The translations under genes and the position numbers were made by a program. Shown piece by piece: positions 39,804-63,480 of a DNA stretch of 64,000 nt. The notes below the pieces were generated by a model, which worked only from the letters and a program-made list of their open reading frames with translations, ran no database searches and was not told where the DNA came from. Source of the stretch: Pseudogymnoascus verrucosus. Its lineage: Eukaryota. The stretch's first letter is position 1; every line of letters begins with the position of its first letter. The stretch lies in assembly GCA_001662655.1 (NCBI GenBank), contig KV460217.1. The stretch is one strand, 5' to 3'.

Positions 39804-39825
39804 CCCCACTATCCGGCCGGTGGGG
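39804..39825. promoter_or_regulatory. Two overlapping inverted CGG-N3-GTGGGG sites in the FAH/cupin divergent promoter
   Basis: CCCCAC-TAT-CCG (39804-39815) and CGG-CCG-GTGGGG (39814-39825). Confidence 0.6.
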
Positions 39826-39986
39826 GTTGGTCCGTTACAACATGTACTAGATATCCAGCCACTCTTTGAAAGTGACCGATATTCGCTCTGATCTCATTTC
39901 AAATCTCATAAATGATTTAATGGCCATTATCCTCAATCAGCTTACCAATTTGACTTGACCACTTCTTCAATTAATTCCTTCACAAA

Positions 39987-43474: not shown

Positions 43475-45058
43475 CTAGTTTTTGGTGTAGCCTTTCCGCT
43501 CCACCACCGTCCCACAAAAGTTCTCCGGCTTCACAAACCACCTACTCACCGATCTCCACTCTTTATTTCTCACCTCATCATCGAGAACAAATTCAAACCT
43601 CCTCACTACCTCCGGAATAAGTTTGCTCACCTCTAGCAAGCTCAAATTCTTTCCAATACATGTCCGACTACCCATCCCAAACGCAAAGAAATAACGCTCA
43701 ACATTTGCCCCATTGTTATGCTCCTTAATCTCTAACCAGCGCTCTGGCCGCCAGGTGTCTGCATCAGCCCCGTACACGGAAGTGTTACGATGTGCCACCC
43801 AGGCGTTGATGCCGACCGTGCAGCCAGCGGGGAATTTCTGCCCGGCAAGCGTGGCACCACAGGGAGGTACCACACGTGAGAGAGGTAATCCGGTGGCTGA
43901 GTGTAGGCGGAGGCCTTCTTTGATAACAGCTTGGAGGAAGGGAAGTTGGGTAGCTTCTTTGAAAGTGATTGGGTCAGAGATAGCACCTGCGGCTATGCCA
44001 GCGTCGATTTCGTTTTGGAGGCGCTTGTACGTAGCAGGGTGCTTAAGGAGATGATAGAGGACCGAGGAGAGCGTGATGGCGGTCGTGTCGCTACCTGCCC
44101 CAATGTTGCTCTGGCAGATGGTAAATAAGTCACTTGGTGTCATTTTCTCTGGATCTTCAGCACGAAGAGCCAGAAACTTAGACACAAAATCGGGTGGGCC
44201 ATCACGGTCTTGACTTTTGGGGTCTTTGAGCAACGCCTCTCGTGACGCGATCTGAGATTTGGTATAACCTGCGACATATCCGTGGCCCCCAGTAGATGGA
44301 AGAAGAGGGAAGAGGATATTGTGGAGCTTTGGGAATATGCCAACGTATGTGCTGTATGAACCTCGCGAGTCAATGGCTCCGAAGACTCCTTCCTTATCAA
44401 CGCCCATGTCGAGGAATCCAAAGCGCTTTCCAAATGTTATCTCGCCAATAACATCGAACGCGTAGCATTGGAACCAAAGCCCAAAGTTCACTTTCCGGCC
44501 GGTCTGAGCTATCTCATGGAAGCGCAAAACGAACAGACAGCTACAGTTATCAACAAACGGCTCGTAGCCCACAAGAGAGCTCATTGAGTATGCGGAAGCA
44601 AACTTGCGGCGTTGTACGCCATGGCGATGAGGGTTAAGGTCGGCAAAGAGGGACGCCTTGTCGGGATCTGGCGGCATCCATGCCCAGTACCATGGAGCCT
44701 GGTTAGTTCGTTAGATTAGTAAACTAAAGGCTGGAGATGGCCATCGAACCTTGACAAACGCATTTCCATGCCCGTAGATTATTTTCGCGGCTTCAACGTC
44801 GTCGATGGAATACTCATTCGGCGCAATCCGCACAACTGGCCCATACTTCTTATGGAGGTCGACATTCGTCCTCTCAAAATCGCCTTGGTATATTTTATAG
44901 AGATACCACAGACGTGTGAATCGTGCAAGAGGCGGTCCTGGAACGCTGCGTAGCGGATCAATGAGCCACGAGACCAAGCTAAAAACAACACAGAGAGCAG
45001 CTCCAAGAGGCAAAATACTGCCTAAAGACAGTGATAGTAATTCCTTCAACATTGACAT
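43475..45058 (-). CDS. Cytochrome P450 (pisatin-demethylase-like)
   Basis: N-terminal TM, PGP, YGPVVRIAPNE, AGSDTT, EGLR, PERW, FGMGSRTCIG; intron ~44700-44749. Confidence 0.94.
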
Positions 45059-45212
45059 TGCCACAAATGTTCTATTGCTCGACTTGAAGAATTACATAGG
45101 GAGTATGGCGTCTTATTATACGCTGTAATAGTGAAGCAAGCGTTGCATAGTTAACGGAAGGCAACTGATGTTCACCTGTGTGGGAATTGCGGGGTAATCC
45201 CCCCTCACTTAT

Positions 45213-45514: not shown

Positions 45515-47119
45515 CTATAACCGCGACGAGAAACCCACCTCAGTCGCTACCACTCCCTTCGCACCGGCTACCCTCGCTGCCGCAACACCTGCCCTCCGTC
45601 CAAACACAGCACCGCTCGTCAAACCACTGCCACCAGGATAATTGCCATAAAACAGACCTCCCAACATTTCACCTACGCAGAACAGGCCCTCCACCTCCCG
45701 GCCTGATTGCGAGATGACAGCAGTGCTAACTGGGTTTACAGACAGGCCCCCGAAGGTAAATGTGATACCACAGCATACCTTAACCGCCATAAATGGACCT
45801 TTGTCAACTGGGAGTGCCCAGTTCGACTTGGGTAGCACCAGCTTTACCGTAGAACTCTGCGTTGATAAGCCGTCTTTGACAGCGGGGTCCCAAATCAAGC
45901 TTGGCTTCTCCTTTTGTGATGCGTAGACGGCCGAGTTATATTCCTTAATAGTCGAGATAAAAGTCGCTGGCTCATTCAGCCCACGCTGCGCGCAATTCTC
46001 TGCCAGCTCTTCAAGCGTCGAACCCCAAATTTTCTCCACTACTGTATCACGGTATTCCTCGTCCCGAAGCCACGGAATCATGCGCTGATCCCATACCTGG
46101 AATGCCACTCCATCAGGTTGCCCATGGATCGCGCGCCCAAAGCGTGCATAGGTAAAATTCCGCATGTCAACTCCCTCGTCAACAAAGCGCTCGCCGCCGT
46201 TGTTCAACATTAGGCCTAGCGGATATCCGCTCTTAGTAAATTCGTTGGAGATGGCCCGGTCGCCGCTGTTCGCTGGTGCATTCGCGTCCCAGCATGTACT
46301 ATGGCACCCAGACCAGTTGCCAGCCTGCTTGGCATTCACATCCCGCATTGCAAATTCGAGAGCGTCACCAGTGTTATATGGGGTACCGCGAACGCGTGCC
46401 AGGTCCCACCCCGGACCGAGATATTGTGAGCGCATACGGGGGTTGGCTTCGAAACCGCCAGCGGCAAGGATCACTGCCTTCGTTTTAATTATTTTGTCGA
46501 TTCCTTGGACCTCAACAACGACGCCTGATACGGCACCCGTAGCTTGGTCCGTGATGATGCGTTTTGCGGCGGTTGAGTAATAGACCTCGATGCCGTGCCG
46601 GCGTGCGGCATTCTGGTGGTCTTGGATTAAGCCCTTCCCTCCCTCATCAGTCTTTAGGGACATGCCGCCCCAGAACTTGAAGCGGCCATTAACCTTGTAC
46701 GCCTGTCTGTTGAAAGAGAGTTGGAAGCGGATTCCCTGCTTCGCTAGCCACTTAACGGCCGCATTCGACTCCTCGATCAGGGCCTGGCTTAGTTCAGGAT
46801 CAGTTCTCCCCGAAGTCATCCGGTCAATATCCTTCCGGAATTCCGCCGGCGTGTAGGGTTCGAGGTCAATGAGCTTGGCCATTTCAGCCGTGACGTTGTT
46901 GACGATGGGAAGCAGATCTGCTGTGCCATTGTGCACGGTCCGAAAGGCGCCGGCAGTAAAGAAGCTGTTACCACCTGCCCATTCCTCAGGACACTTGTCG
47001 ATAATTACAACGCGCCCTGCACCAGCCTCTGCCGCCTGTATTGCTGCTGTGAAGCCCGCATTTCCACCACCAATAACGAGGACGTCGGCGGCGCTGGTGA
47101 CTGATGATAGAGAAGGCAT
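45515..47119 (-). CDS. FAD-dependent tricarballylate dehydrogenase TcuA/CobZ-like flavoprotein
   Basis: DVLVIGGGNAG, GGNSFFTAGAFR, AGGFEAN, GWDLARVRGTPYNTGD, GNWSGCHS, RFVDEG, GITFTFGGL, NYPGGSGLTSGAVFGR; intronless. Confidence 0.85.
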   Translation of the reverse strand: MPSLSSVTSAADVLVIGGGNAGFTAAIQAAEAGAGRVVIIDKCPEEWAGGNSFFTAGAFRTVHNGTADLLPIVNNVTAEMAKLIDLEPYTPAEFRKDIDRMTSGRTDPELSQALIEESNAAVKWLAKQGIRFQLSFNRQAYKVNGRFKFWGGMSLKTDEGGKGLIQDHQNAARRHGIEVYYSTAAKRIITDQATGAVSGVVVEVQGIDKIIKTKAVILAAGGFEANPRMRSQYLGPGWDLARVRGTPYNTGDALEFAMRDVNAKQAGNWSGCHSTCWDANAPANSGDRAISNEFTKSGYPLGLMLNNGGERFVDEGVDMRNFTYARFGRAIHGQPDGVAFQVWDQRMIPWLRDEEYRDTVVEKIWGSTLEELAENCAQRGLNEPATFISTIKEYNSAVYASQKEKPSLIWDPAVKDGLSTQSSTVKLVLPKSNWALPVDKGPFMAVKVCCGITFTFGGLSVNPVSTAVISQSGREVEGLFCVGEMLGGLFYGNYPGGSGLTSGAVFGRRAGVAAARVAGAKGVVATEVGFSSRL

Positions 47120-47460
47120 AGCACAGAGAGATGAAGTAATGATAGAAGATGAGAGTGAATGCTGCTTGAGAAGACAGTACCTACATGGCAGGCGACAGCA
47201 TCTAAATATTCGAGGGCATTGTGGGGATGTTCTGACTAAACGCAAGCTTTTGCTCGCGCCTTCTCTCAGCTGTAGATGAAAACTGTTTGGTGCCCTACCA
47301 CGTGAGAGGAGACGGAGGTTTTGAGGCCGAAGGATGACGCGGAACCCACTTGTATCGGGAAGCGGGTCTCTCCACACCCCAATGGCGCTGGGACCCCTGA
47401 ACGTACAGGGGATACCATGCCATCGGGTCGATCTAGGCGCAGGCCTCGGAGCTTGTCCGA

Positions 47461-47477
47461 CGGAGAGTTTCAGTCCG
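47461..47477 (+). promoter_or_regulatory. Cluster B motif CGG-N11-CCG (CGGAGAGTTTCAGTCCG)
   Basis: In the TcuA-like/aldolase divergent promoter; 16/17 identical to the site at 59274. Confidence 0.72.
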
Positions 47478-47679
47478 ACGACAAACTGACAGGATAACAA
47501 GGACGGCAGTGTTATCCGGATTTCTTGTACTTGTAATTGAGATGTATATCAATGGGGGATTCTCAAGGCTTGGAGCATGCTTCGCTAAGAAACTCAGATC
47601 AAGTCCATAAAGTACACCAAATATCCTGCTGCACACACACATATCACCTCAAGCCAACTTACTAAAACCACCACCCATT

Positions 47680-48671
47680 ATGGAGGCGTCAACCGTTACC
47701 TCGACCGTGACTAGTACCCACGAAGATATCAGTGGGAAGCTATTGCCTATTCCGGCCGATACGCCTAGCTCGCAAAATACAGTGGCCGACAACGGCAGCA
47801 GCTTCTTCGAGGAGGTGCATTTTTTAGGCGACAAGGCGGGCAAGGTCACCATCCGCTCTCCCCCGCGCTTCGATAACATCGAGGACCAACGTAAATATCA
47901 GAAGCAGCATCTCGCCGTCGCATTCCGGGTTTTTGCCCGCCAGGGCTTCGACGAAGGTGTTGCTGGCCACATCTGTAAGTCATGCGATTTCAACGTCACG
48001 TGGACTCATGAAAGCTTACAGACCCCCTAGCTCTCCGTGATCCCCTCAATCCCGAGTACTTTTGGATCAATCCGCTCAGCACGCACTTTTCGCAAATCCG
48101 CGTTAGTGATCTTGTTCTCGTCAATGAGCAGGGTGAAGTACAGCCTGAAGGCGCACAGGCGGCCATCAACGGCCCAGCCTTCGCGATCCACAGCGAGATT
48201 CACAAGGCGCGGCCAGACTTGAACGCCGCGTGCCACGCGCACTCGGTGTATGGGAAGGCATTCTCGTGCTTTGGTCGGCCTATTGAGATGATTTACCAGG
48301 ATGCGCTACGCTTCTACAACGACCTGGCCGTGTACCCGCGCTACGGCGGCACCGTCATCTCGACTGAAGAGGGCGCACGTATTGCGAAATCGCTGGGCAA
48401 CTGTCGCAGTATTATTCTCCAGAACCATGGCATGATTACATGCGGAGCGACGGTGGATGAGGCAGCTTTCTTGTTTATTGCTTTAGATCGCTGTTGCCAT
48501 GCGCAGTTGCTAGCGAATGCGGCAAGTGGACCTGGCTGGGAGAAGATTATTATTGGCAAGGAGGAGGCCGAGATGACGCATAAGAAGAGCGGGAATTCAA
48601 GTAAGATGTGGCTTGCATTTCAGCCGTATTATGATCAGGTGGTAAAGAATGAGCCGGATGTTTTAACATAA
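47680..48671 (+). CDS. Class II aldolase/adducin-family metalloenzyme
   Basis: GFDEGVAGHIS|LRDP, FWINP, AFAIHSEIH, AACHAHS, LQNHG; intron 47975-48030. Confidence 0.9.
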
Positions 48672-48729
48672 GGGGTATTTGAATAGGTTATTGTTTTATT
48701 TATTTAAAGGGGTATATACATATTTTAGA

Positions 48730-51358
48730 CAGTGTGCAGCGAATCGTGACTCGGCATGATTCGCCCCGAATCAGATTCGAATCATGATCTGATTCGGGCT
48801 ATTTCTCAATGATTCGAATCATGATTCGAATACTTGCCAAGATACATAATATGTCCAAGCGTCTAGCGGTGAAGGCTTGTCGCCGTCCTCAATATATAGC
48901 TTTTTAGATTAACATTTAATACAATTAATACAATCATTGTTATTATGAGTGATTCCGAGCTGTCTGACGTTCCTAAGGATCTTGATGATTATGTCGTCGA
49001 TAAAGATAACAGTAATGCGAGTGTATTCTCATCGTCTTCGCTGTCGTTACCACAAAGTAGTAATGATGGTATATTCTCATCGTCTTCGCTATCGTTACCA
49101 CAAAGCAGTACTACAATACTACAGCTACCAGCCACTCATTCTACTCTTTTTACGAAGAATCTATATTCTCGTACTATCTTAAGAGGCTCTCCTAATAAGA
49201 TGCAGTATACCTGTACACAAGAGAACTGTTCATATATGCCTAAAGCTAAACCGGTATCACAAAATACGATAAGCAATTTATGGAGACATATTGAGCTAAA
49301 GCACCTAGCTATCTTCGAAGCTTCTTCAAAATCTACTCGAAAACTGAAGGATAAAGACAATATCCGCCCTTAGAATCGTGCGTCTATGTCTAGATTCTTC
49401 AGGCCAAATCCCCAGAGTACAACGACTCTAGTTTCAAGCACTAAATTCCGAGAATTGCTGCTTGCGTTCATCGTTACGAATAATCTACCTATAAGATTAG
49501 TAGATAAATTCTCATTCCGGCAGCTCGTACATCATCTTAATCCTTCAGTCCTAAGTATCTCTTCAACGTCTTTGAAAAGGGATCTACATAGGCAGTTTTG
49601 CCATCATCGAGGGCAGCTACAACTACAACTACAGAAGCATATTATAGCAGGTGGACGATTATCACTTACAACTGATGCTTAGACTGCTACGAATAGAACG
49701 GATCATGCTGCTATTACTGTACACTAGATATCAAAAGATTAGGTCCAACACTTAAGAATCCTTAATGTGATAAATCTACTTGAGCCTATTCATTCTAGCG
49801 AATACCTAGCTCAGCAATTACTCTCAGTTACAGATGATTTCAAAATTACACATAGAGTCTTTACAATTACAAGAGACAATGCATTAAATAATACAGTAAT
49901 GCTCAACTAATACGAATTAAGAGCAGCAGATGTTCCGACGACGACGAATCAGCCATGGAGCTTTATAGTAAAAGATGGCGATGTACGATGTATAGCACAT
50001 ATTATAAATCTAGCTGTTTAAGCAGCTCTTACAACGATGAAAGCTATACTATCAGAAGAGCTTGAGAGTTATCGAGTTCAAGAGGGTTTAGCTTATGCTC
50101 GGATCAATGCTATCTATTCTAAAAAAGAAGAAGTTGTTAGCGCTTTAACAAAGCTTCGTAAGCACATCTATGTGTTTAGAAATCGTTGAGGGTAGAAGGA
50201 CAGTCTTCGTTCTCACGCCATTGCCACTGGAATCAAGCCTGTTACTCTTACGATTAATATGCTAGTAAGATGGAACTCAACGTATCATATGCTTCAAAAT
50301 GCATTGTTAATAGAGGCACCAATTACAGCGCTTTGTGCGTTACAGACTCTTGATATAAGCATGCGGGATATCCAGATTACTTCGAAGGAATGGGAATTAC
50401 TTCATGCTCTTATAGATTTCTTCGAGATTTTCAAGCGTATCTCAGAAAAGGTGCAAGCAGATGGGTATCCAACACTTAACTACTGTGTTCCATATTATCT
50501 ACGACTAATGGATAAAATCAAGAAGATGAAGAAGACTATGAAGCACATATCTATCGACGAAGCTTGTACTGCTGCGTTTAACAAATTAGACGACTATTTC
50601 TCACTTGCAACAAGCCAACGGTCAAGCCATTCAACAGTTGCAACAATATGCGATCCTCGGTTTAATTTTAGTATATTTAACTTCTATTTACTAGAAAGCT
50701 TTTATAACATAAGCAAAGAGCGAGCAAGAGCACAGTTTGCAGCTTGTTATAACAAGTATAAAGCACAGGACAATGACATTCGAGCAGAGGAAATAGATGC
50801 TATGCATAACGAGGATGAGAATATACCTCGAGAAGTAGACTCTGAGGATGAGATGTTTAAGCATCGAAAGCCTATACTTCAAGAAGTCGAATGGAGACGG
50901 TAGCTTAATGAGCTAGGAGTTGATAAGCCTAATACTAATGTTCTTAAATATTAGCAAGCAAAGCAGTATTAGTATCTAATAATTGCACAAATAGCTCGAG
51001 ACTATTTGGCAATTCTAGCAACATCAGTAGCATCAGAACGAGTCTTTAGCTAAGGAGCTGACATTGTTACGAAGAAAAGGAATAGACTATTACCTTTAAC
51101 AATCAGATACTTACTATGTCTACGGGATTAGGGGGTAATTGTCGATGATGAGGATGTCGAAGATATAAGTCAAGATATGGGTTAGGCATAGTTAAATATT
51201 TTTCGTAGTTTTCAATATTCCATACACTCTATTTCAGCCTCAAAGATTCGAATCATGACTCGAATCAGATTCGAGTCATGATTCGGCGAATACCTCAAAA
51301 ATATGAATGATTCGGCGGATCGCCGAATAGTATTCGGGGGGTGATTCGCCGCACACTG
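48730..51358 (+). mobile_element. Complete hAT-superfamily DNA transposon, RIP-inactivated
   Basis: 8-bp TSD ATTTTAGA (48722-48729 / 51359-51366); TIR CAGTGTGC(A/G)GCGAATC 15/16; subterminal GATTCGAATCATGA repeats. Confidence 0.95.
48945..51185 (+). pseudogene. hAT transposase remnant (BED-like finger, DDE core, dimerisation domain)
   Basis: SLTTDA*, ITRDNA, VRCIAHIINLAV, VRWNSTY, ATICDPRF, ARDYLAI.ATSVASERVFS; many TAG/TAA stops at Trp/Gln positions. Confidence 0.9.
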
Positions 51359-51396
51359 ATTTTAGATTGGAATTCGAATAAAAAAATATAAAAAGT

Positions 51397-53662
51397 TTAA
51401 CCCGCAGCCTCATGCCTACCACTATTCTCAGCATCTAGTAGCACGCCATTAAAGCTCGGCATATACATATCCATCAGGCCATTAAAGTCGTCGTAGCCAT
51501 GCGGTAGGTACATGTTCCCTGTCTGCCCCATAACATTCTCTGCCGCATTAGACGACATGGGTGGAAACATTTGACATAAAGCTTCCAGCTCCTGGGAGTT
51601 GGGCGTCTGCACGTCCCACGTATTATCTGTAGGGGTTGTTAGCCTATATAATGACAGGAACGGGGTGTATTTAGGAACATATAGGTAAGTCTGGGGGAAT
51701 AGGGGTAAGTTAAAGAACATAACTCACCAAGGATATTCGGAATGCCATTCGCCGCCATCAGCCTCCTGATATTACCTACTGGGCTTAACACCCCCGAATT
51801 CGGCACCGTCAACTCATCTAAGCACCGCAAACTCGCAAACAGCGCACTCAAATTTTCCTCACTTCGCGTGCCTTCGGACGCAATCGTGTTCCGCGTGTGA
51901 ATTGTGCACGCCACATACACAGTGTAGCTTAGAAGGTATGGCGCACGCCGCATTGTGTATTTCTCCTGGTACGTCGAGGCGATGGAGGTTATGTTGCGCG
52001 CAGCTGTAGTGCAGCGTTTCCAGGACATGGCGGGAATCGACGACTGTCGTAGGTGGCCAAAGACGAAGGGCCGATGTAGAAGGATCACGAGTGAGTTGTA
52101 CGTAGTGAGTAGGATCATAATGTTTGGCGAGGGGGATGGAGAGGATGAGGGTGGGTCTTTAGCCCAGGGCTCGAAGACAAGGTGTGGGGGGAGGGAGGCG
52201 TACCAGCCGGAGAGGGCATCATCGACGCCTTGTAAGTGGGCGCGCGCGTTGTCGGCTGTGGCGCCGACGACATAGAATAGGTTGATAATTTTGGCCATAA
52301 TCTTAGAGAGCAGGCAAAGCTGTTGGAAGGTGGAGATGGAGTGAATCGGCGTCGGCACGACCGGCGGCATGGACGGGTTATTGGGGGATTTGGGGTCTAC
52401 ATAAGGCGTCCAGAGCTCGTTCTCCTCCATCGTATCTAATAAGTCGCGCGGAACGTGTGCGTCGCAGGGCTGAAAGGTGACAGGGCGACCGAGATATAGG
52501 CTCTGCAGCTTGTCACAGATGAAGGCGCCCCAAAAGACGCGTCGGCGGATTTCGACGTCTTCGGCGTTGCCACCCACAGCTTTGCAGTCGAGATGCAGAC
52601 CGAGATCGTACACCATTCGCAACGCGTAGCCCGTATACAGCCAACCCTTTGAGGCCATTCCCCGGGCATTAAATGTTGAGCCAAGGAGGAGAAGCCCTAC
52701 AATGGTTGGAATGCTTGAAGTGCCGAGGAGGGATTCGCTCGCGAGCAGGTTTTCGCACCGCGTAAAGAAGCGCCGGCCAATGGTCTCTGGGTCAGACACA
52801 ATATCTCGCACCTCTAGACGGTCCGAAAACTTGCTCACGCAGGCAAAGATGGCATTGAGGAGGAAGGGCGAGCAGTGGGGTCCGCCGGTGACCAGATCCC
52901 GCATGATGGCCGGTCGATATGTTAGGAGGAAGGTGTGATGTTGCCGATTCCAGTGCAGGTCGAGGAGATGCATCGCCAGTTCGGCTGGCTCATCACCAAT
53001 GGTGGTCATTTGCAAAAGGCGGTACTCCTTCTGCCGCTCTAGTAACGAGTTGGCAATGAGCTGATGGCGGAGCGGCTCATTGGTCTGACTGCTCCTCCGA
53101 TGCATAGGGTTGTCGGGGCTCAACCCGTGTAGCGCGGACGTGGGACCGTAAACCTTGACCTCTCCACGTTCGTCGACTGAAAGATAATTGGAGGGTTGGT
53201 AGCTGTCATCTTCTGATCCAACTGTCTCCCGATGCCCCTCATTGTCCTTCGAACCCTTGGAGTGGGGATTATGGGGCTGTTCGACATCTGCTTGACCACC
53301 TTGTGCCTCCGGGACGGCGCAACTAGATAGGTCTACCTTTCCATTGGTGACAATAATAGCTCCCAACCTCTTGTCACGTTCCTCTGGGGTTGCTAACTTA
53401 AGCTGGACCAAACACCTCTCTAGTGTCAATTTCTCCTCTAATAGAGCATTCATCAACATATTTGACGGCCTGTAATGATTAGCAAAGATCTGATAATCTC
53501 GGAGGCTCAAGTCCCTTGCCTTTTCTTAGGGGGCTCTATGGAATAGACACACTGGCGGTTATGTGCCATGCAGGACCCACACCGGGGCTTCTGGATATCG
53601 CACTTGGTCTTGCGGTGCCGACACGTGCGACACGCTCGGGCGAGGATCTTTGGCTCGGTCAT
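51397..53662 (-). CDS. Zn2Cys6 transcription factor with fungal-specific TF domain
   Basis: ACRTCRHRKTKCDIQKPRCGSCMAHNRQC; GWLYTGYALRMVYDLGLH, RRRVFWGAF..DKLQSLYLGRP; introns near 53472-53522 and 51568-51728. Confidence 0.92.
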
Positions 53663-53884
53663 GCTTGCCACTATGTTGATACAGGCTGCCGGAGAGACAG
53701 GATGCGTCGCAGAGTAACTGAATTGTCGGGCATAACTTGTGTGCTCCGTCCCTATAAGTCTGGATTGCGGGATCTCGGAGACACCTATACCTACGCGTTT
53801 AGGCATTCATGTCTTTGGGGTCGATACATGACCTGATTTCAACCCCACATTTTATTACCCCACCTTTTTACTACCCCGCATCAA

Positions 53885-53901
53885 CGGACTGAAAGGCCCC
53901 G
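53885..53901 (-). promoter_or_regulatory. Cluster B motif CGGGGCCTTTCAGTCCG
   Basis: In the TF/PIG3 divergent promoter; CGG-N8-AGTCCG. Confidence 0.68.
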
Positions 53902-54420
53902 ACACTCGTAAGCCCAAGCCGAACGATAACCTTACCTGAATGCCATAGGGCAAAACATCAGTCGCATTTTGGAGCCTATGTCTAGACGGGATGGTGTTAT
54001 TTTTGCATTTGCTATCGGGTTGTAGTGGTTCAGCCAGGACTGGTCCTAAAGCTTGGTATATCGGATAGCGGGGTAACTTACCAAGACCATGTACCTCGAT
54101 AAAGTTTGATACAGCAGCAATACGTCCGCTGCACCCCAATGGCTAGCTTTCGGGGCCGAAAAGCCGGAGATCAACGAAGCTTCTATCACACGGCTTGCAT
54201 ACTACTGGATGCACACTAGAGTCGGCCAGCATAAAGTAAGCAAATCCATCTATCTACCAAGGTATTACAACTACGCGTCCGCACCAAAACCCAACATTAT
54301 CTCCTGCGATAAACTACGTTGGTGAAGTTATTTTCTGGGTATTTTAATCAGCACCTCACAATCGGTATAGCACATTGCTTTCTACGCAACCGGTCGGCGC
54401 CATATCAAGACAACTCCAAG

Positions 54421-55605
54421 ATGAAAGCAGTTGGTATAAAAAATGGCCGCGGCAACGCCGATGCTTTCTTCATCGACGACAATGTCCCCGATCCAATTGT
54501 CTCTTCGGGTCGCATCTTAGTTGCCATCAAAGCCTTTGGCCTAAATCGTATGGACATAATGCAGCGCGAGGATAAGTACCCATATCCCCTCCTACCAGAG
54601 TCGGGAAAGATTTTGGGGGTAGAGTTCAGTGGGTTAGTTGAGGAGGTGGGACCGGACTGTAAGTGGCGTTTCGAAGGGAGCGGTTGATGGTGGGAAGATT
54701 CTAATGAGACAAAACAGGTACTTCGAATTTCAAGGTCGGGGACAAGGTGTTTGGGCTGGCTTATGGGGGAGCTGTGAGTGCTTGTGCTATACACTTCTAT
54801 GTTTCTCATACACGTCACTAACTATAATTCCCAAACAGTATGCACAGAAGATCTCTGTTTCTGAAAAGATGATCATGCACATCCCAGACACAATGAGCTT
54901 TGAGACAGCAGCAGGGATTCCAGAAGTCAGTTAAACCTAACCTGTCTTTTTTGACAACCAACATCCAGCTAACCCACCACCCAGACGTACTTCACTGCCA
55001 TCCAAGCCATTCATCTCGTCGGCGGGTTAGAGCCCGGCCAAACCGTCCTCATCCACGCTGGCGCCTCAGGGGTAGGTCAAGCAGCCATCCAGGTTGCCAA
55101 ACTGGGCGGCGCCTCTAAGGTTATTGTCACGGCCGGTACCGACGCAAAGTGCGACCTCTGCCGCTCCCTCGGGGCCGACGTGGCTGTCAATTACCGCACG
55201 GAAAAATTTGCCGACGTCGTGGAGCGCGAGACGGCCGGCGCGGGTATCAACCTCATTATCGACCTCGTCGGGCAGAACTACTGGCATGCCAATACAGCCT
55301 CCGCTGCCAAGGAGGGCAAAATCGTGCTGGTTGCTGCTATGAGCGGGAGCATCATCGAAGCTTTCGATCTACGCGCGCTATTGAACAAGAGGCTGTGGGT
55401 TCTGGCCACGACGCTGCGGACGAGGGACTCTACGTATCAGGGAAAGCTGCGGGATAAGTTTGTCGAGGTTGCTTTAGATAATCTAAGGTTGGGGCGTATG
55501 AGGATTACGGTTGATAAAGTGTTCCCCTGGAGCGAAATTGCAGAGGCGCACAAAAGGATGGAGGCAAATACCAATGCGGGGAAGTTGATTTGCGTTGTGG
55601 AGTAG
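54421..55605 (+). CDS. NAD(P)H quinone oxidoreductase, PIG3/zeta-crystallin (MDR) family
   Basis: AFGLNRMD, ILGVEFSG, GGAYA, AAGIPE, LIHAGASGVG, MEANTNAGKL; three introns. Confidence 0.9.
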
Positions 55606-55971
55606 TTGGCATGGTGAGATTTGCAGTTTTTCTAGAATATAAGACACCCTGGTTTTTGTACTGAACTGCAGAATGGAGTAAGATAAACTGTGATTTACGC
55701 GTCCTCCCAGATAGTTAGAGGGTAGCCAATTAGACACAGAATAATTATTGGAGATGGACAGAAAGTGTACATGTTCCGATTATTAAAGCTCTACATTCCA
55801 GAAATCTTCTACCGAAAGCTATTTGCTACATTCCTTACTAGTCATTAAATTTTATCATTTAAAAGCATTTGTGAAATTTACCGTAACCAAACACTTCAAG
55901 GGCGAATGGAAGCATAATAATTTATAATATAGTCTAAACCCACGTAAAAACATTACAACCTAATTATCTAC

Positions 55972-56946
55972 TTATCTAAAAAGCTTCTCCGAATTCGTCA
56001 CAAACAACTTCTGCCAGACCGCATCATCCGTAATCCATTCTCTGAGCACCTCAATATGCACATCATCGGGGACCTCCCTGAAGCCTTCGATATCATCTAA
56101 GCGCTGCTGGTCCGTCCTACCTTTCCTCGCAACTCCCAACTGCGTATGCGGCCAATCTGAGCCAAATACAATCTGGTCGGGTCCCGCCGCGATGACAGCC
56201 TTGACTATGGGCTCGATGGCCTTCATTCCCTCACGGCCGCTGCCGTGTCCGTTGTAAAGTCGTTCAAACCCAGACACCTTGACGGTAAGACGTCCCTCCT
56301 TCACCAACTCAAGGAAGGTCGCAAACTCGGGCGTTTTCTCCTCGCCTGGGAAGGTGCCGCCGAAGTGGTCCGCGATCATCTTGACTCGTGGGTCCATGGC
56401 ACGGATCTGTTCCGCCATTGATGCCCATGCTGCACATAATCAGCTCAGCTCTACAATATTGGCGGAGATAATCGTCGTGGAAAAATACTGACTGCGGACA
56501 TCACAGAATACACCAATGGCCCACCCAAGGCGCCCAAACCGCTCCGCCAACGCAGCAACTTTCTTCCCAATCTGCGAGCCGCCAGCCTGCTCGCCATGGC
56601 CCCAGGACATCTCATGGAGCCGGGCCCCTCGCACTCCGGCCGCGTGCAATGCGTCAAGCTCCGCGTCCGTGGTAGTGTTGACATCGATGGTGGCAAGGCC
56701 ACGGAGAGTTAGTCCAGCTGTCTGGGCCTTGCTCAAGGTGTCGATGAGCGCGGCGGGAGACGTGCCTTGCACAGAGGCATGCACGACAACAACGCAGGTG
56801 CAGCCGGTAAACTTGGAGGGGTACTCGGTGATTTGAGCGGCTTTGGGTGTGTAGGATCGCGAGGTTGGGTATGGGAAATTTACTGGGTCGAAAACGTGGG
56901 TATGTGTGTCCCAAGCGCCTGCTGGGACGAGAGGGCTGCGAGGCAT
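55972..56946 (-). CDS. Amidohydrolase-2 family protein (LigI / lactonase-like)
   Basis: AWDTHTHVFDP, RSYTP, GVRGARL, DHFGG, VKVSG, FGSDWPHT; one intron near 56435-56495. Confidence 0.85.
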
Positions 56947-57213
56947 AATGTTTATAAGACCTGCTTTTATATTCAGTGGCTTTAGATCAAAATAAAAACA
57001 ATTGGAGTCAAATAATGTGTAGAGGATGGCGGGACATTTTATATGCTTGGAACAAGGAGTGTGGACTTTTTAATAATTCCAAGGGGGTGGATAAAATGTA
57101 TAGGATATCCACGCTCGTGTCGCTGACCCTTGAGTGCGGGGTAGTTAGTTGGTGGGGTGTTTCTCAGTGTAGCGTACTCCTGCCGACAAAGATGGTTGTC
57201 GGCCTCTAGCGGT

Positions 57214-57230
57214 CGGCCTCTAGTAGTCCG
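57214..57230 (+). promoter_or_regulatory. Cluster B motif CGGCCTCTAGTAGTCCG
   Basis: Upstream of the amidohydrolase; CGG-N8-AGTCCG. Confidence 0.62.
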
Positions 57231-57684
57231 AGCACTATCAGCTTAGCCCTGCCACAGACAGACAGGATCTTTGGGGTTCCCATTTCCTACTCTCTCCAAT
57301 AATAGATGATTCAGCAAAATGCCAACTCCCAGTACCGTATCCAATATGAAGATGTTGGGCTGCATCCAATTGCTTGGTTGCTTGGAACATCTCCGAGTGA
57401 GTAAAATTTTAATCAAAATAGAGGTAAAGTTCGCGTGGAGCTAGAAATGGTTATAAGTAGTTTTACATAACAATTACACTTGCTATGTCAGTTGTTTCCA
57501 CATGAAAACATGTATGGCATGAGTGCAAATACCGTAGATTAGACTAGATCGGCGGAGCTTTCTTTTTCTGAAAACATTATAGCACGCTCGTGGCTATTAC
57601 AAAATACACGCTGTGGAGCAAGCAGTTTAAATATTGTTAATTTGATTTATTTCAAAAAATCTGAATTATAATCTCTAGTATTGC

Positions 57685-58788
57685 TCATTCAGACTTCAGT
57701 TTCTTCGCCTTCATACCCTGGGCCAAAAGCTCTGTAACATCGTTTACCGTCTTCCCTCTTACTCTTGCATCCGGTTGCTCCTTTCCAAGTTCCGAATCTT
57801 CCGCTACAGTACGGTATACTCCTGCAACTTCTTGAAACCTATAGTCATGTAAGCATCCTTCCCAATAACGAGACTCATACATCAGACTCACAGTCCCTTC
57901 TCAAATCCGCCATTCTCAGCCATCGTATCAGCAATCTCCATCATCTCATGCACCCATCGATACGCCTTCGGTGCCATCGTAACTAGCCCCTTCTCCGCCA
58001 ATGTGAGTGTTGAAGGATTATACTTCTGTAGATACTCTCTTAGCTCCTCCAAAACGCCTAGTTCCTGCGCCGTGGTAAACGACTGGATTGCCAGTGCTAC
58101 GAAGCCCTTCGTCGTGCATGCAAAGCACATTTTCAACCCCGTCGCTGACCCAATCTTCAAATCAAGATGCTGCACATTCAGTGCCGCAGACAATGCTAGG
58201 TCAGGGATTTTGTGCGGGCCCGACAAGATAAAAGATGGGCAATGCCAGTTCGGCTTGCCATCGGCACCTCTTTCTTTCGGATATGGTACTCCACCTATGA
58301 TGCCACCATCCACATGATGGACGTTTGGGTTCACGCTGAGCAACGAGTTGATCTCGATAGCTGAGTTGGGTGAAATGGCGTTCATGTCCACATAATATAA
58401 AGGAGATTTCCGTGAACCGGGTGCGGGAGAGAGGGCAGAGACGATTCGTTCTGCGGTCTCTTTGGCGTCACGAGGGGGGACGATGGAGATGATTGCCGAG
58501 CAGGAGGACACTAGGCTTTCAATGGATGGGGCGAGATTGACGCCAGCTTTACGCGCGCGTGCTTGAGTACTTTCACTATGGAGAGAACAATCAGTGCTGA
58601 ATTCTTTCAAGAAGTTACATGTTAAACTCGACAGAGGAGTAGTAAAAGGGACTTAAGCAGGTGCTTCGTTACCTTCGATCTGCTGCGTATGTGAATACCT
58701 GATAACCGTGGTCGATGAGTAGCGATGCTACCCCTAGGCCCATCTCACCAATACTGACGACACCAACACTTGTGAAAGTCTCTGTCAT
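57685..58788 (-). CDS. 6-phosphogluconate / beta-hydroxyacid dehydrogenase-like NAD(P)-binding protein (DUF1932 type)
   Basis: VGVVSIGEMGLG Rossmann motif, SIVPP, YVDMNAISP, DGGIIGG, ATGLKMCFA..TKG, KAYRWVHEMMEIA; two introns. Confidence 0.85.
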
Positions 58789-59231
58789 TTTTGAAATAAT
58801 AATTTTCCGTCTTTGGAGTAATATACTATATCTTTGAGATTTGCTAGGAACGGATGAGCACCTGCGACTTCGTCAAAAACCGAGTCCAAAATCGAGGACC
58901 TAAATATTATCACAAAAAATCAAGTGTTACTCACACTATTTAATTTACATCTGAAAAAAATATCCACAAAAAGAAACCTATTCTTATCACAGGTTTCTAA
59001 GATTGTTGGCGGGGTCGTTCAACGTCGAAGCATTCCAGGCTCCCAGCAGATACCACTAGTGGGAAGCCCCGTTTCTGTGGGCTCGGGTATCGGCACCCCG
59101 CGAACAATGCCCCGCGGACAATGCTCCATATCTGGACGTCAGACTTTAGTCCTGTTCGTCTGCTATGGGGTTTGGCGACGATCCTCCCCAGGTTTAAGCG
59201 ATCCTTGTCGAATCCTATAAAAGAGTAGACA

Positions 59232-59290
59232 CGGACAGTTACAGCCCGCCAATGGCAGCAAGAGATGGGAGGTCGGAGAGCTTCAGTCCG
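59232..59290. promoter_or_regulatory. Two CGG-N11-CCG sites in the dehydrogenase/carrier divergent promoter
   Basis: CGGACAGTTACAGCCCG (59232-59248) and CGGAGAGCTTCAGTCCG (59274-59290). Confidence 0.7.
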
Positions 59291-59745
59291 CCACAGTAGC
59301 ATGCTATCCGACGAGATTATTCGCACGGCATCTCCAATCCATCACAACCTGTTACGATAAGAAATCTCACATGACATAGTCTCAGAGAGTATCCGAAAGG
59401 CCCTTTGGCTCCATGTGGTCCTATGATCTTTAGTGGGTGTCTGGAGAGAGCTCCGCTCTCTCCTTCTGATGTCCCGACGCCGAACATGCAAGGCAGCGTT
59501 CTGTGGACAGCTCAGGTCCGATGCCACGTCTTGGGCCTAATGGAAGATGTATCTAGGTTTCAAGAGACAACGCCTCAGATTAGCATTAATTTTGTATTCT
59601 AGAATCGTCCTATTATCGCACTTTCCGTTCATACAACTCGCTCTGCATTGTTCGATATTGCCACTCCTTGACCACTTTATTACGAGAGAAACTTGTATAC
59701 ACAACACCACCATATCATATACTCGTGGACAACTGGAAACAAAAT

Positions 59746-60938
59746 ATGTCAGTGCAACCCACTGAAACATCTGTCTTGCCTGAGCAAGTAGACAAGAAAA
59801 AAGAGCGCAATAGTCCCCTTCGCTCTGTACTTGCTGGCTCAACAGCCGGTGCAGTTGAAATTGGTAAGTCGAAAATCATACAATGCAATTTGAGATTAAA
59901 ACTAATCATGTCGGCTCCCAGCTATCACCTACCCTGCTGAATGTATGTTTGCATCATGCTACATTTTATACCATAACTCCATATTTCACCTCCTACACCC
60001 GTCGACGGATATAAATATTTATTAGGGGATTTACTCACACAGATTTAGTTGCAAAAACTCGAGCACAACTCAATCAAAGATTAGTACAAGGTCAGAAGCT
60101 ACCTTGGCCAAAATTTGGTGGAGAATGGTATGCTGGGTGTACCACGCTGATCATTGGAAATTCGATCAAAGCTGGCGTTCGTGAGTGTTGCTCGGGTATT
60201 AGCCAAAGCTCAGTAGTTTCTGACATAATTTGTCGTAGGATTTGTGGTATTTGACCAGATTAAAGAGCTACTTCAAGATGCAAATGGCAATCTTTCAGGC
60301 CCCAGAACCGTTGTAGCGGGCTTGGGCGCCGGGGTCTTCGAATCAGTCCTAGCCGTGACTCCGTTCGAAAGCATCAAGACTACTCTGTACCATAGCATCT
60401 CTTCTGTTTGCCTCTACTACCGCTAACTTCTCACAGTATTGACGATCGAAAAGCAGCCAAACCCCGTCTTCGGGGGTTGTTCCACGCTGTTCCCATAATC
60501 GCCCGCGAGCGTGGCATTGCTGGATTTTATCAGGGTCTAGTCCCCACCACGGCGAGGCAATCCCTTAACAGTGCAACGCGGTTTGGCTCCTATGGAGCAT
60601 TTAAACAGATGGCACTGTCTTACAAAGAAAAAGGGGAGAAACTTGGAAGCGTTGTGACATTTGCGATCGGCGGCGCGGCGGGAGTCGTCACAGTATATGT
60701 TACGCAGCCGGTGGATACGATAAAGACGCGGATGCAGAGCATTGAGGCCAAAACACTCTATAAGAGTAGTCTGCACTGTACGAAAAAGTTAGTTCAAGAG
60801 GACGGAGTGTTTAAGCTGTGGAGTGGAGCGGTGCCGAGACTTGCGAGACTGATCTTTAGTGGTGGTATTGTATTTTCGATGTATGAAAAAAGTATGGCTA
60901 TGTTTGAAAAAGTGGATCCTGAAGGGGTATATATTTAA
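59746..60938 (+). CDS. Mitochondrial tricarboxylate (citrate) carrier, Ctp1-like
   Basis: AGSTAGAVEI.ITYPAE.AKTR, GNSIKAGVRF, VTPFESIKT, QPVDTIKTRMQ, WSGAVPRLARL; several introns. Confidence 0.9.
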
Positions 60939-61014
60939 AATGTCTTAATAAATATTCGTCGACTACTAAAAATAATATGAAAAACCATGTCCCAAGGAAG
61001 TTACGACCGGGGCC

Positions 61015-61186
61015 TGCTTGGAAACCGTTCTTTCCATCTATAGGGCTTCAAAGTATCGAGGAAGCTGCGACAGGTCGGTCTTGCTTGCAATCGCTCTTGC
61101 CATATATAGGGCTTGGAGGTTTTGAGGAAGCTGCGATCGAGAATTTGCTTGGTAGTCGTTCTTTCCATATCTACAAAGTGGAAGCT
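61015..61186. repeat. Degenerate ~65-bp tandem repeat (about 2.5 copies)
   Basis: Units start tgcttg at 61015, 61082 and 61146; shared tatagggctt...gaggaagctgcga in the first two. Confidence 0.6.
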
Positions 61187-61440
61187 CCAAAAACCGACTA
61201 TTGGTTGTGATGAAGACAGTGAGCATGCATGTTATCTAGACTAATTTTGGTCCTAATTATTAACAGAAAGAAAGAGACGCATTGCAGCCTTGTGAAACAA
61301 CTGGCTCATGCGGGAATGAGCGCAAAGAGAGTCTTCAGGATGGTTAAATTACAATCAAAATATTCAATCAAGTATAACTTACTCCAAAAAATATTCTTGA
61401 AATTATCCTGAAGGGTGGTGTCGTTGTAGTCTGAAAACGA

Positions 61441-61457
61441 CGGGCACTTATAGTCCG
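61441..61457 (+). promoter_or_regulatory. Cluster B motif CGGGCACTTATAGTCCG
   Basis: 370 bp upstream of the MFS ATG; CGG-N8-AGTCCG. Confidence 0.68.
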
Positions 61458-61810
61458 GCGTAGCTCGAGCTATAGGAAAAGCAACGACGCAAGCGCGGCC
61501 TACGGCCCCGTGTTTAGAACAGCACCCACGACCCAATCGGGCATAGGGACTCTTACAGCGGGGTAATCTCTCCAACCATGTGGGAACCATCATATTAGAC
61601 GCTGGAATCCAGTATATGGGGATGCGGGGAAAGACCAGGGTCGGCATGCCGAAAAGGACGAAATCTAGCTTCCCCGTGGGGTTGGGATATAAAAGAGGCC
61701 AGAACCTCAATTTTTCAGAACAGCCTTAGTACTATCGACAACCATTTTTTTCCACCACCATCACCATATTTCATGATCTAGTTAAAGATACCACCTATTC
61801 CTTGAGCAAG

Positions 61811-63480
61811 ATGGCCAACGTCAATCAGCTCACCGGCCCTGCTGAGCACAGCGTGAAGCGCGATGACACCTTCGTTGAGGACATAGACATCGACAAAAAT
61901 GATATCTCAGGCAGTGGATATGTTATGTCCACCTACCATTCATACACTCCAGAGTACAGTAGCGAAGTGGAAAAAAAACTCCTCCGCCGGATTGATCTTC
62001 GTATCATGCCACTCGTCGTTATCATCTATATTTTCAGCTACCTCGATCGGAATAGCGTGAGTGAAGCTACTTCTCCCTATTCCAACCTTAATGCTGATGA
62101 GATTATTAGATAACTCAAGCTCGTTTGTATGGTTTGCAAGAAGATACCAACGTTACCGGTGCAGTATACAACACTGCTATTGCCATCTTCTCTGCTGGAT
62201 ATGTCATTATGCAATTGCCCTCCACAGTCATAATGACCAAAGTGCGTCCTTCTATCTACCTGGTAAGCCATACATGCATGTCATTCTGAATTTTGGCTTT
62301 TTGCTCACTCAAGTAGCCATGTTGTATGATTGCATGGGCCATTGTCAGCGGCTCAACAGCTGCAGCATCAAGTCCTGCAGGCCTCCTTGTTGCCCGATTC
62401 ATGCTCGGGCTAATCGAAGCTCCCTTCTATCCTGGTGCAGTCTACTTCCTCTCCTGCTGGTATACAAAGAAGGAACTTGGTATACGGATGGCATTCCTCA
62501 TCTCGGGCCTCCTTCTCTCCAATGCCTTCGCTGGTCTTATCTCATCTGGCGTCCTCTCCGGTATGGCCGGCGTCGGAAATCTGGCTGCTTGGCGCTGGCT
62601 CTTTATTCTTGAAGGGCTAGCAACTATCGCAATCGCCCTAGTGGCTCTTGTCTTTCTCCCGGACTATCCTGCTACAACTAAATGGCTTAGCGAAGAAGAA
62701 ACCATCGTCGCCCAAGGCCGCTTAGCCAAGGACGCGGGTAGCGACGATGTCTTGGACGAGGAGAAAGTCCCTATGCTCCAGGGCATCAAATGGGCACTGC
62801 AAGATCCGCGTACCTGGATGTTTGCCTGCTTGCAGATGTGTGCTTCGGCTGCCATCTCATACTCTCACTTCTTCCCGACTCTAATCTCCCAACTAGGATT
62901 TACCAACAACACTACCACATTATTGCTGACCTCTCCCCCATATCTCTTCGCCTTCCTTTGGTCACTAGGCCTTGCCCTCAATGCAGACAAGATGCAAACT
63001 CGGTCGCCGCACGCGGCCATCTCAATGCTCGTCGGCATGGTTGGCACCATCCTATTGATTGCCGTACCCATCCACTATAAATACCCCCGTTACGCCTTCA
63101 CCTTCCTCGTGGCCTCGGGGTCCTTCGGTGTTTACTCCTCCACATATACCTGGCTCTCCTCTACGATCGTCCGTCCACCCGTCAAGCGCGCCGCCGCCAT
63201 CGGTATCGCCAACACTATTTCTAACACAGCAGCGCTGTTTGGCGGCTACTTCTGGCTTGACATTTACTCCCCAGCCTTCCGCGAGTCGTGGGGCTGCGAG
63301 TTGGCCTTCATGGTTTTGGGGCTGGCGTGTATCCTGACGCTGAGGCTGGTGCTGCAGAGGGCCAATAAGGCGTTCGATAAGTTGGCGGCCGAGATTGACC
63401 CCAATGATAGTGTTGCTATGGCGGCTCTGGATGATGATTCACGGCGTGCAGTACAAAATGGGTTTAGATATATTATTTGA
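61811..63480 (+). CDS. MFS transporter, anion:cation symporter (Dal5/Tna1/tartrate-like) family
   Basis: LLRRIDLRIMP, YLDRN, EAPFYPG...WYTKKE, AWRWLFILEG, LPDYP..WLSEEE, KRAAAIG; two introns. Confidence 0.92.

Follow-up and report, generated by a model that had tools for sequence, protein, structure and literature searches.

Eight genes at positions 45515-63480 of a 64,000-nt stretch of Pseudogymnoascus verrucosus contig KV460217.1 (GenBank assembly GCA_001662655.1; the whole stretch is referred to below as the window) form what we regard as an uncharacterised fungal catabolic gene cluster under the control of a Zn2Cys6 transcription factor, which seems not to have been described before. On balance, we favour the view that this transcription-factor-controlled cluster is conserved across the Pezizomycotina and most likely brings an external polycarboxylated acid or lactone, probably of plant or microbial origin, into central metabolism. 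Its genes encode five enzymes, the regulator, a mitochondrial carrier and a permease; their linkage is conserved in other fungi, their promoter regions share a motif that recurs in a related locus, and the flavoprotein among the enzymes ends in a peroxisomal targeting signal (PTS1). An earlier note on this DNA had reported eight genes in this interval; all eight were found, and their families were upheld by domain and model searches.

Gene content and conserved linkage

The window is fungal-type DNA with short GT-AG introns. Spliced gene models were obtained by enumerating canonical introns between open reading frames (ORFs), families were assigned by Pfam, NCBIfam and PDB searches, and the models of the aldolase-like gene, the amidohydrolase and the carrier were compared with database proteins. 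The cluster genes are as follows (aa, amino acids; FAD, flavin adenine dinucleotide).

45515..47119, minus strand: TcuA-family FAD flavoprotein; single exon, 534 aa, FAD_binding_2, C-terminal -SRL
47680..48671, plus strand: class II aldolase-fold protein, TqaM/NovR type; exons 47680-47974 and 48031-48671, 311 aa, PF00596
51397..53662, minus strand: Zn2Cys6 transcription factor; exons 53662-53520, 53469-51728 and 51626-51397, 704 aa (model), Zn_clus PF00172 and Fungal_trans PF04082
54421..55605, plus strand: PIG3-like NAD(P)H medium-chain reductase (MDR); four exons, 333 aa, ADH_N and ADH_zinc_N
55972..56946, minus strand: LigI-family (COG3618-type) Amidohydro_2 gene; two exons, 303 aa, PF04909
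57685..58788, minus strand: DUF1932 / 6-phosphogluconate-dehydrogenase-like NAD(P)-binding protein; three exons, 317 aa, DUF1932 and NAD_binding_2
59746..60938, plus strand: mitochondrial carrier of the tricarboxylate (CTP/FUM11) type; five exons, 306 aa, Mito_carr
61811..63480, plus strand: MFS permease nearest to ACS (2.A.1.14); three exons, 520 aa, MFS_1

A scan of metagenomes with the flavoprotein yielded 30 loci. Three of these (L001, L002 and L011) are near-identical to one another, encode flavoproteins 85% identical to that of the window, and have their genes in the window's order, that is, flavoprotein, aldolase, transcription factor, PIG3, amidohydrolase and DUF1932, with no transposon. 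The L001 sequence ends within the DUF1932 gene, so that its comparison with the window covers the six genes from the flavoprotein to DUF1932. The similarity between the two stops exactly at the 3′ end of the flavoprotein gene, where we therefore place the left border of the cluster. The neighbouring cytochrome P450 gene (43475-45091) is thereby excluded; it has no syntenic counterpart in L001 and lacks a CGG-N11-CCG site. Elsewhere amongst the 30 loci, a homologue of the transcription factor occurs near the flavoprotein gene in L013 and L015, and a PIG3 homologue in L014 and L023. Near the flavoprotein gene, L015 (2893-4405) and L017 (11479-12756) carry a gene for an iron-type alcohol dehydrogenase; these two loci may represent a variant cluster.

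Linkage in sequenced fungi was evaluated by comparing the results of three protein searches (flavoprotein, aldolase and amidohydrolase), a shared contig being recognised by equal contig size or by locus tag; as the best 120 flavoprotein and aldolase hits were used, the counts are a lower bound. The following six species have adjacent or nearby locus tags.

Cadophora sp. M221: aldolase 001276, flavoprotein 001277
Scytalidium lignicola: amidohydrolase g3226, flavoprotein g3227
Talaromyces verruculosus: amidohydrolase 08205, aldolase 08206
Sporothrix curviconia: amidohydrolase 001247, flavoprotein 001251
Rasamsonia emersonii: amidohydrolase 150, flavoprotein 146
Pestalotiopsis fici: aldolase 13158, amidohydrolase 13161

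The tag spacings match the order in the window: four between the flavoprotein and the amidohydrolase (Rasamsonia, Sporothrix) and three between the aldolase and the amidohydrolase (Pestalotiopsis). Of the 77 fungal amidohydrolase hits, at least 22 are on the same contig as one of the listed flavoproteins (10) or aldolases (14); seven of the 22 shared contigs are no longer than 25 kb, and two (21,774 and 24,258 bp) hold all three genes. Linkage amongst the flavoprotein, aldolase-like and amidohydrolase genes recurs in the Leotiomycetes, Eurotiomycetes, Sordariomycetes and Dothideomycetes. The check for conserved linkage that the earlier note had called for is therefore answered positively by the six species, the shared contigs and the synteny with L001.

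The history of the flavoprotein was approached with a FastTree phylogeny of 60 sequences (48 selected database hits, the window protein, eight translations from the loci and three bacterial proteins; unnamed hits were mostly omitted). The clustered state is scattered through several clades, implying at least four changes, and the stand-alone state is concentrated in one Pleosporales-type clade; the simplest reading of this tree would be an old cluster that later dispersed in some lineages. There are several flavoprotein lineages in fungi. The clade including the window protein (Pseudogymnoascus, Cadophora, Leptodontidium) groups with the Dothideomycete genera Zopfia, Lophiostoma, Kalmusia and Alternaria with a support of 100, and other Leotiomycete flavoproteins (Venustampulla, Scytalidium, Bisporella) branch elsewhere. 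Such mixed placement of Leotiomycetes and Dothideomycetes suggests either several paralogues or transfer of the cluster.

Related gene neighbourhoods occur in bacteria. Amongst bacterial loci, the 80 with flavoproteins most similar to the fungal one (42-48% identity) contain the following families.

Class II aldolase: 12 of 80 loci, mostly Burkholderiales; in most, directly downstream of the flavoprotein gene on the same strand
Amidohydrolase_2: 4 of 80 loci
HIBADH-type dehydrogenase: 13 of 80 loci
PrpD family: 9 of 80 loci
PrpF: 5 of 80 loci
TctC receptor: 14 of 80 loci

This context would be typical of tricarboxylate uptake and of methylcitrate/aconitate chemistry. When the amidohydrolase was taken as the starting point, the trio with flavoprotein and aldolase was found in only one of 80 bacterial loci (L045, the same as L111), which is the closest bacterial analogue of the fungal cluster. 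In this betaproteobacterial metagenome-assembled genome, positions 2673-8882 hold an operon for a class II aldolase, a TcuA-like flavoprotein, a TctC receptor, a D-2-hydroxyacid dehydrogenase and a CMD-family protein; it is followed by a divergent gene for a LigI-like amidohydrolase, and then by a second TctC, hydantoinase A/B and an amidase. From the co-occurrence in bacteria, the flavoprotein-aldolase(-lactonase) module would therefore be older than the fungal cluster.

A shared promoter motif

The eight genes are served by five promoter regions, three of them divergent; the predicted sites described below are included in the list.

47120..47679: divergent promoter, flavoprotein/aldolase-like gene; sites CGGAGGTTTTGAGGCCGA at 47313 and CGGAGAGTTTCAGTCCGA at 47461 (= CGGACTGAAACTCTCCG on the other strand)
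53663..54420: divergent promoter, transcription factor/PIG3; site CGGACTGAAAGGCCCCGA at 53885, GCGGGGT at 53873 and 54068
56947..57684: amidohydrolase promoter; site CGGACTACTAGAGGCCGA at 57213-57230 (minus strand), GCGGGGT at 57136
58789..59745: divergent promoter, DUF1932/carrier; sites CGGACAGTTACAGCCCG at 59232 and CGGACTGAAGCTCTCCGA at 59273-59290 (minus strand)
60939..61810: MFS promoter; site CGGACTATAAGTGCCCG at 61441-61457 (minus strand)

These five regions of the window were the only input to a dyad scan (a 4-mer, a gap of 0-14 nt, a 4-mer), in which CGGA-N10-CCGA ranked first, with five copies in four of the five regions and one in the remaining 60 kb. Over the whole window, its six copies compare with 1.36 expected, and none of 100 shuffles reached six. 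A refined pattern, CGGAC-N9-CCG, occurs eight times in the window against 1.05 expected (eight was not reached in any of 100 shuffles). Six of the eight copies are in the promoter regions (47461, 53885, 57214, 59232, 59274 and 61441), at least one in each, at 200-530 bp from the ATGs; the sites at 47313 and 47461 lie 200-360 bp from both ATGs of the divergent pair. We take CGGAC-N9-CCG to be of the CGG-N11-CCG form, as for zinc clusters of the Gal4 type.

The motif recurs in L001, the intergenic DNA of which cannot be aligned with that of the window. In its 21.6 kb, all three CGGA-N10-CCGA places and all four copies of CGGAC-N9-CCG fall within 2.7 kb of three orthologous promoters. In the more distant L015, with a homologue of the transcription factor nearby, one site is located 221 bp upstream of the flavoprotein gene. 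The motif was not found in the stand-alone flavoprotein loci L006, L007, L009 and L012. The earlier note had claimed one promoter motif common to the cluster; CGGAC-N9-CCG, present in all five regions and recurrent in L001, bears out that claim, although it is not certain that the same motif was meant.

The two remaining copies of CGGAC-N9-CCG in the window are off the cluster and may be extra members of the regulon or chance occurrences, about one copy being expected per window. The one at 26008-26024 is at the start of an ORF running into an aldehyde-dehydrogenase-like frame (25873-27195). The other, at 39818-39834, is in the promoter region shared by two divergent genes, one fumarylacetoacetase-like (38152-39235, minus strand) and the other for a cupin (39975-40541, plus strand).

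A plain k-mer scan brought up a second element, GCGGGGT, with 12 copies in the window, six of which are in four of the five promoter regions (53873, 54068, 57136, 59009, 59095 and 61558); four of its seven copies in L001 are in orthologous promoters (1070, 1256, 4540 and 9411). GCGGGG(T) presumably corresponds to the core recognised by the carbon catabolite repressor CreA/Mig1, which it resembles. In view of this general core and of the six copies elsewhere in the window (8233, 9579, 18000, 32169, 45189 and 45882), we rejected it as a pathway-specific site.

The encoded proteins and their surroundings

In Salmonella enterica, the tcuRABC genes for the utilisation of tricarballylate specify the FAD dehydrogenase TcuA, its Fe-S membrane partner TcuB that reoxidises FADH2, the transporter TcuC and the LysR-type regulator TcuR. 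The window flavoprotein passes the NCBIfam equivalog model for TcuA (NF006130) with 487.4 bits against a cut-off of 369, over model positions 4-462 of 467. The cut-off of the older CobZ_N-term/TcuA model TIGR02485 is not reached (233 bits vs. 372.55), and in the PDB the protein matches fumarate and urocanate reductases best. The FAD-binding GxGxxG begins already at residue 17 and leaves no room for an N-terminal presequence. The C-terminal -SRL is a PTS1; amongst the best 120 homologues, the ending is ARL in 46 and SRL in 15, and about 85 altogether have one of the form [SAP][RKHNQ]L. With the PTS1 conserved, the flavoprotein step is therefore probably peroxisomal. A paper on the peroxisome proteome of Histoplasma lists a PTS1-bearing "FAD-dependent oxidoreductase Fdo1", a possible orthologue of the flavoprotein. 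Pfam searches detected no TcuB-type domain among the scanned ORFs of the window, nor in 61 ORFs that surround the closest bacterial homologues at 10 loci.

With 276 bits, the aldolase-like protein exceeds the PRK06208 cut-off of 255, and it matches PF00596 at 6.5e-37; its model is identical, without gaps, in 310 of 311 residues to a protein of Pseudogymnoascus sp. 24MN13. The closest solved relatives include TqaM (6.5e-49) and NovR (1.2e-48), FucA scoring only ~1e-9, and the sequence shows an H-x-H plus a later His. TqaM is a class II aldolase-fold non-heme-iron enzyme acting as an oxidative decarboxylase of 2-hydroxy acids: its metal site consists of three His, and the 2-hydroxy acid is held via its carboxylate and hydroxyl while C1 is removed (PMC13351049). 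By this kinship, oxidative decarboxylation is the more likely role of the "aldolase". The class II aldolase named in the earlier note accordingly stands as to its PF00596 fold; of the two reactions offered there, decarboxylation and aldol cleavage, the former is the more likely, TqaM and NovR being amongst the nearest characterised relatives.

The family profile of the amidohydrolase matches LigI (PDB 4d8l) over its full length with an E value of 6.8e-68, and the next characterised entry (4dlf) follows at 1e-5. LigI hydrolyses 2-pyrone-4,6-dicarboxylate in the protocatechuate 4,5-cleavage and gallate pathways of bacteria. The Amidohydro_2 domain is a TIM barrel; across 17 sequences from fungi and bacteria, D24, H26 and H28 of its D-x-H-x-H, the mid-chain H176 and the strand-8 D243 are invariant, as are the DH and SDWPH motifs and several arginines. 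PF04909 matches both exons, and the protein is 83% identical to a Cadophora protein over 302 residues, without gaps. The sole NCBIfam match, 4-sulfomuconolactone hydrolase, is far under its cut-off. From the profile and the conserved residues, the amidohydrolase is a probable lactonase.

For the reductase, the best NCBIfam model is TIGR02824; its 201 bits come from the last exon alone (206 of 333 aa), and the cut-off of 296.8 applies to a whole protein. In the PDB, two entries named "quinone oxidoreductase", 2oby and 2j8z, match best (~1e-42); we take both to be human PIG3. The DUF1932 gene is retained in L001. The PDB matches of its product (1i36 and 3qsg) are uncharacterised proteins, and the Atlas clusters carry only the DUF1932 name; the "beta-hydroxyacid-dehydrogenase-like" enzyme of the earlier note is this DUF1932/6-phosphogluconate-dehydrogenase-like protein. 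The carrier is 54% identical to FUM11 (~275 aa) and 60% to a "mitochondrial tricarboxylate transporter" of Taphrina, these names being those of the source annotations, and it aligns with a Talaromyces protein without gaps at 67% identity over 291 residues. The MFS permease scores best with the subfamily model TIGR00893 (ACS, 2.A.1.14), at 139.7 bits from the last exon only and below the cut-off. The L001 orthologue of the transcription factor is 74% identical. The first intron of the factor gene (53470-53519) lacks a GT donor and has a GC-AG boundary (GCAAGG...CTAATCATTACAG); only with this GC-AG intron is the Zn2Cys6 domain complete and its reading frame kept.

Between the aldolase-like and transcription factor genes, which face each other with their 3′ ends, there is a transposon.

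48730..51358, plus strand: hAT-type transposon; hAT-like RNase-H domain

This element of 2,629 bp is flanked by an 8-bp target duplication, ATTTTAGA, at 48722-48729 and 51359-51366, and has 16-nt terminal inverted repeats and subterminal GATTCGAATCATGA-type repeats; its transposase frame is split into at least three ORFs. A DNA contig from a near-identical strain joins 48721 to 51359, skipping 2637 bp, and L001 lacks the element. The transposon therefore inserted recently, at the level of the strain, and does not belong to the pathway. Further copies occur in the sequencing runs compared with the window. In two runs that may be of RNA, small low-depth pieces cover the flavoprotein and aldolase-like genes, which carries no information on expression. 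A short dispersed repeat at ~61113-61196, between the carrier and MFS genes, has very high summed depth and many loose ends and joints in the DNA assembly of a sister strain; it may be an element like a miniature inverted-repeat transposable element (MITE).

The upstream part of the window (1-45000) is rich in genes of the aromatic-catabolism type, amongst them a phenol-hydroxylase-like FAD monooxygenase (4971-6649), a fusion of FAD_binding_3 with an acetoacetate-decarboxylase-like domain (20674-22653), a LigB-type extradiol dioxygenase (30335-31250), an FAA hydrolase with a cupin gene (38152-40541) and the P450 gene mentioned above (43475-45091). GH32 and GH5 genes also occur in this part.

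Proposed function and comparison with known systems

We infer each biochemical step, the order of the steps and the substrate from family membership. The ACS-type MFS permease would import the compound, and the LigI-family amidohydrolase would open the ring of a carboxylated lactone and so give a hydroxy or oxo acid, the C=C and C=O groups of which the PIG3-type reductase and the DUF1932 dehydrogenase would adjust with NAD(P)H. The TqaM/NovR-like enzyme would then take off one carboxyl carbon; its nearest characterised relatives decarboxylate 2-hydroxy or 2-oxo acids oxidatively, with the help of a metal and O2. The TcuA-family flavoprotein is expected to desaturate, in the peroxisome, a succinyl-type -CH2-CH(R)-COO- unit, as TcuA does in converting tricarballylate to cis-aconitate, and since no TcuB is present, it would probably pass its electrons to O2. 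Finally, the CTP/FUM11-type carrier could move the resulting tri- or dicarboxylate across the mitochondrial membrane. The Zn2Cys6 factor encoded in the cluster would switch on all five promoter regions via the predicted CGGAC-N9-CCG sites, and the GCGGGG(T) elements may add glucose repression.

A tricarboxylate substrate is plausible, judging by the TcuA equivalog model, the FUM11/CTP-like carrier and the TctC/PrpD/PrpF context in bacteria. The earlier note had proposed a tricarboxylate catabolic regulon, and in part this stands: the genes are linked, a transcription factor is encoded amongst them, the motif is shared, the flavoprotein passes the TcuA equivalog model, the carrier has identities of 54-60%, and the bacterial neighbours fit. 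The missing TcuB, the PTS1 and the stand-alone flavoprotein loci do not support it.

Several observations weigh against the reading that we favour. Tricarballylate alone would need only the flavoprotein, so that the presence of four more enzymes suggests a substrate that is different or larger. The lack of TcuB together with the PTS1 suggests a peroxisomal, possibly oxidase-type step, unlike that of bacterial TcuA. The likeness of the amidohydrolase to LigI is distant when a single fungal sequence is compared (E value of only 9e-14), and amongst the relatives found, the DUF1932 family has no characterised member. The CGGAC-N9-CCG pattern was tuned jointly on the window and L001, and two of its copies are elsewhere in the window. 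Pleosporales-type loci have the flavoprotein gene on its own; in seven fungal metagenome loci with 5-10 kb of flank (L003/L004, L006, L007, L009/L010, L012 and L017; 59-77% identical), its neighbours are unrelated; and Aspergillus wentii and Vermiconidia calcicola have the genes for the flavoprotein and the aldolase on separate contigs. The flavoprotein is therefore not tied to the cluster everywhere.

These stand-alone and split loci, and the several fungal lineages in the flavoprotein tree, are what speaks for a narrower pathway made up of the lactonase, reductase, dehydrogenase, decarboxylase, MFS permease and transcription factor, with the flavoprotein and/or the carrier as mere neighbours in some lineages. 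We give this explanation a small, though appreciable, chance. Against it, the flavoprotein and aldolase-like genes have a common divergent promoter with two motif sites, and the DUF1932/carrier promoter likewise has two; the flavoprotein is linked to the aldolase or the amidohydrolase in four fungal classes; and in the 12 of 80 bacterial loci with an aldolase gene, this mostly follows directly behind the flavoprotein gene.

It is also improbable, in our opinion, that the cluster serves the biosynthesis and export of a secreted organic acid in the style of itaconate or the fumonisin side chains, where the carrier would export a tricarboxylate from the TCA (tricarboxylic acid) cycle, the flavoprotein would reduce aconitate to tricarballylate, the other enzymes would modify the product and the MFS protein would carry it out of the cell. 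The 54% identity of the carrier to FUM11 of the fumonisin cluster would suit such a scheme, as would the capacity of fumarate-reductase-family flavoproteins to act as enoate reductases, fumarate and urocanate reductases being the top PDB matches, and the combination of transcription factor, carrier and MFS gene presumably mirrors itaconate clusters. However, the MFS protein is nearest to the uptake-type ACS subfamily, whereas we take exporters of the drug:H+ antiporter kind to be usual in biosynthetic clusters; the known relatives of the lactone hydrolase and the oxidative decarboxylase are counted as degradative; no cis-aconitate decarboxylase, polyketide synthase, non-ribosomal peptide synthetase or citrate-synthase type is found among the cluster ORFs of at least 95 aa; the bacterial counterparts adjoin TctC uptake receptors; and the promoters are enriched in GCGGGG elements. 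That unrelated metabolic genes, of families abundant in fungal genomes, came together by chance and without common regulation is hardly credible, given that gene order and content are kept while the flanks differ, that linkage extends across fungal classes, and that the motif, six- to eight-fold above expectation, is concentrated in promoters and recurs in L001.

Within the catabolic reading, one specific and hitherto undescribed eukaryotic route would unite the five enzymes, leading from a carboxylated pyrone or lactone via tricarballylate to the TCA cycle; we put it forward as a speculation that is unlikely to be correct as a whole. The LigI-like lactonase would convert 2-pyrone-4,6-dicarboxylate or a similar lactone to 4-oxalomesaconate, the PIG3-type reductase would saturate its C=C bond to give 4-carboxy-2-oxoadipate, and the DUF1932 dehydrogenase would reduce the 2-oxo group to a 2-hydroxy acid. 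Oxidative loss of C1 by the TqaM-like enzyme would yield tricarballylate, a peroxisomal, TcuB-independent oxidase of the TcuA type would form cis-aconitate from it, and the FUM11/CTP-type carrier would bring the latter to mitochondrial aconitase. The single steps have precedent in the nearest characterised relative of each enzyme; the chain as a whole is our extrapolation.

A link with gallate or tannin is unsupported. Fungal gallate catabolism has been assigned to another cluster, that of the 1,2,3,5-tetrahydroxybenzene route (PMC10832562), and a term search of the main text of two gallate papers returned no amidohydrolase, aldolase, fumarate reductase or quinone oxidoreductase. The earlier note knew of no characterised fungal cluster of this composition, and our literature searches, from the coverage of which most subscription journals fall out, likewise found no description of this gene set or of a function for fungal TcuA.

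The cluster is widespread in the Pezizomycotina, including Aspergillus section Nigri, Talaromyces, Penicillium, Paecilomyces, Xylariales, Sporothrix and Helotiales, and it includes two families without an assigned role in fungi, the TcuA-like flavoprotein and DUF1932. Should the link with tricarballylate be true, the flavoprotein would be the first eukaryotic dehydrogenase of the tricarballylate type and would show how such an enzyme works independently of TcuB; should it be false, the cluster would still offer a clean case for studying a new pathway of organic acids or lactones in fungi that are used to produce acids. The gene models, the predicted regulator with its candidate site, the predicted peroxisomal step and the bacterial counterpart provide a basis for a substrate search by genetics and enzymology.

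Compared with known systems, the cluster resembles tcuRABC of Salmonella in that its flavoprotein passes the TcuA equivalog model and that it also has a dedicated carboxylate transporter and a regulator. Unlike tcuRABC, it has no TcuB-type gene, its flavoprotein carries a PTS1, its regulator is of the Zn2Cys6 and not the LysR class, and it adds four enzymes and a mitochondrial carrier. LigI (4d8l) is the best characterised profile match of the amidohydrolase family, with the D-x-H-x-H, H and D invariant, but the LigAB, LigC, LigJ and LigK set of the Lig pathway is missing from the cluster, and we take the cluster partners (TcuA-like, TqaM-like, PIG3 and DUF1932) to differ from the enzymes of the Lig/Gal pathways. 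TqaM and NovR/CloR (PDB 9m09 and 9ryg) rank amongst the nearest relatives of known structure for the aldolase-like protein (~1e-49), yet these are enzymes of antibiotic or alkaloid biosynthesis, and the fungal protein is encoded in a degradative-looking cluster. In itaconate clusters, the mttA/mtt1 carrier is accompanied by an MFS gene and a regulator. With these and with the fumonisin (FUM11) cluster, the present one has in common a CTP-type carrier beside pathway enzymes, an MFS transporter and a transcription factor; those clusters are biosynthetic and include an enzyme for a committed step, whereas here the enzymes are of degradative types and the MFS protein is of the ACS uptake type. The Zn2Cys6-controlled catabolic clusters for quinate (qut), nicotinate (hxn), proline (prn) and gallate differ from it in their enzyme families, but they share its layout, in which a pathway-specific factor is encoded with enzymes and a permease and the divergent promoters contain CGG-type sites.

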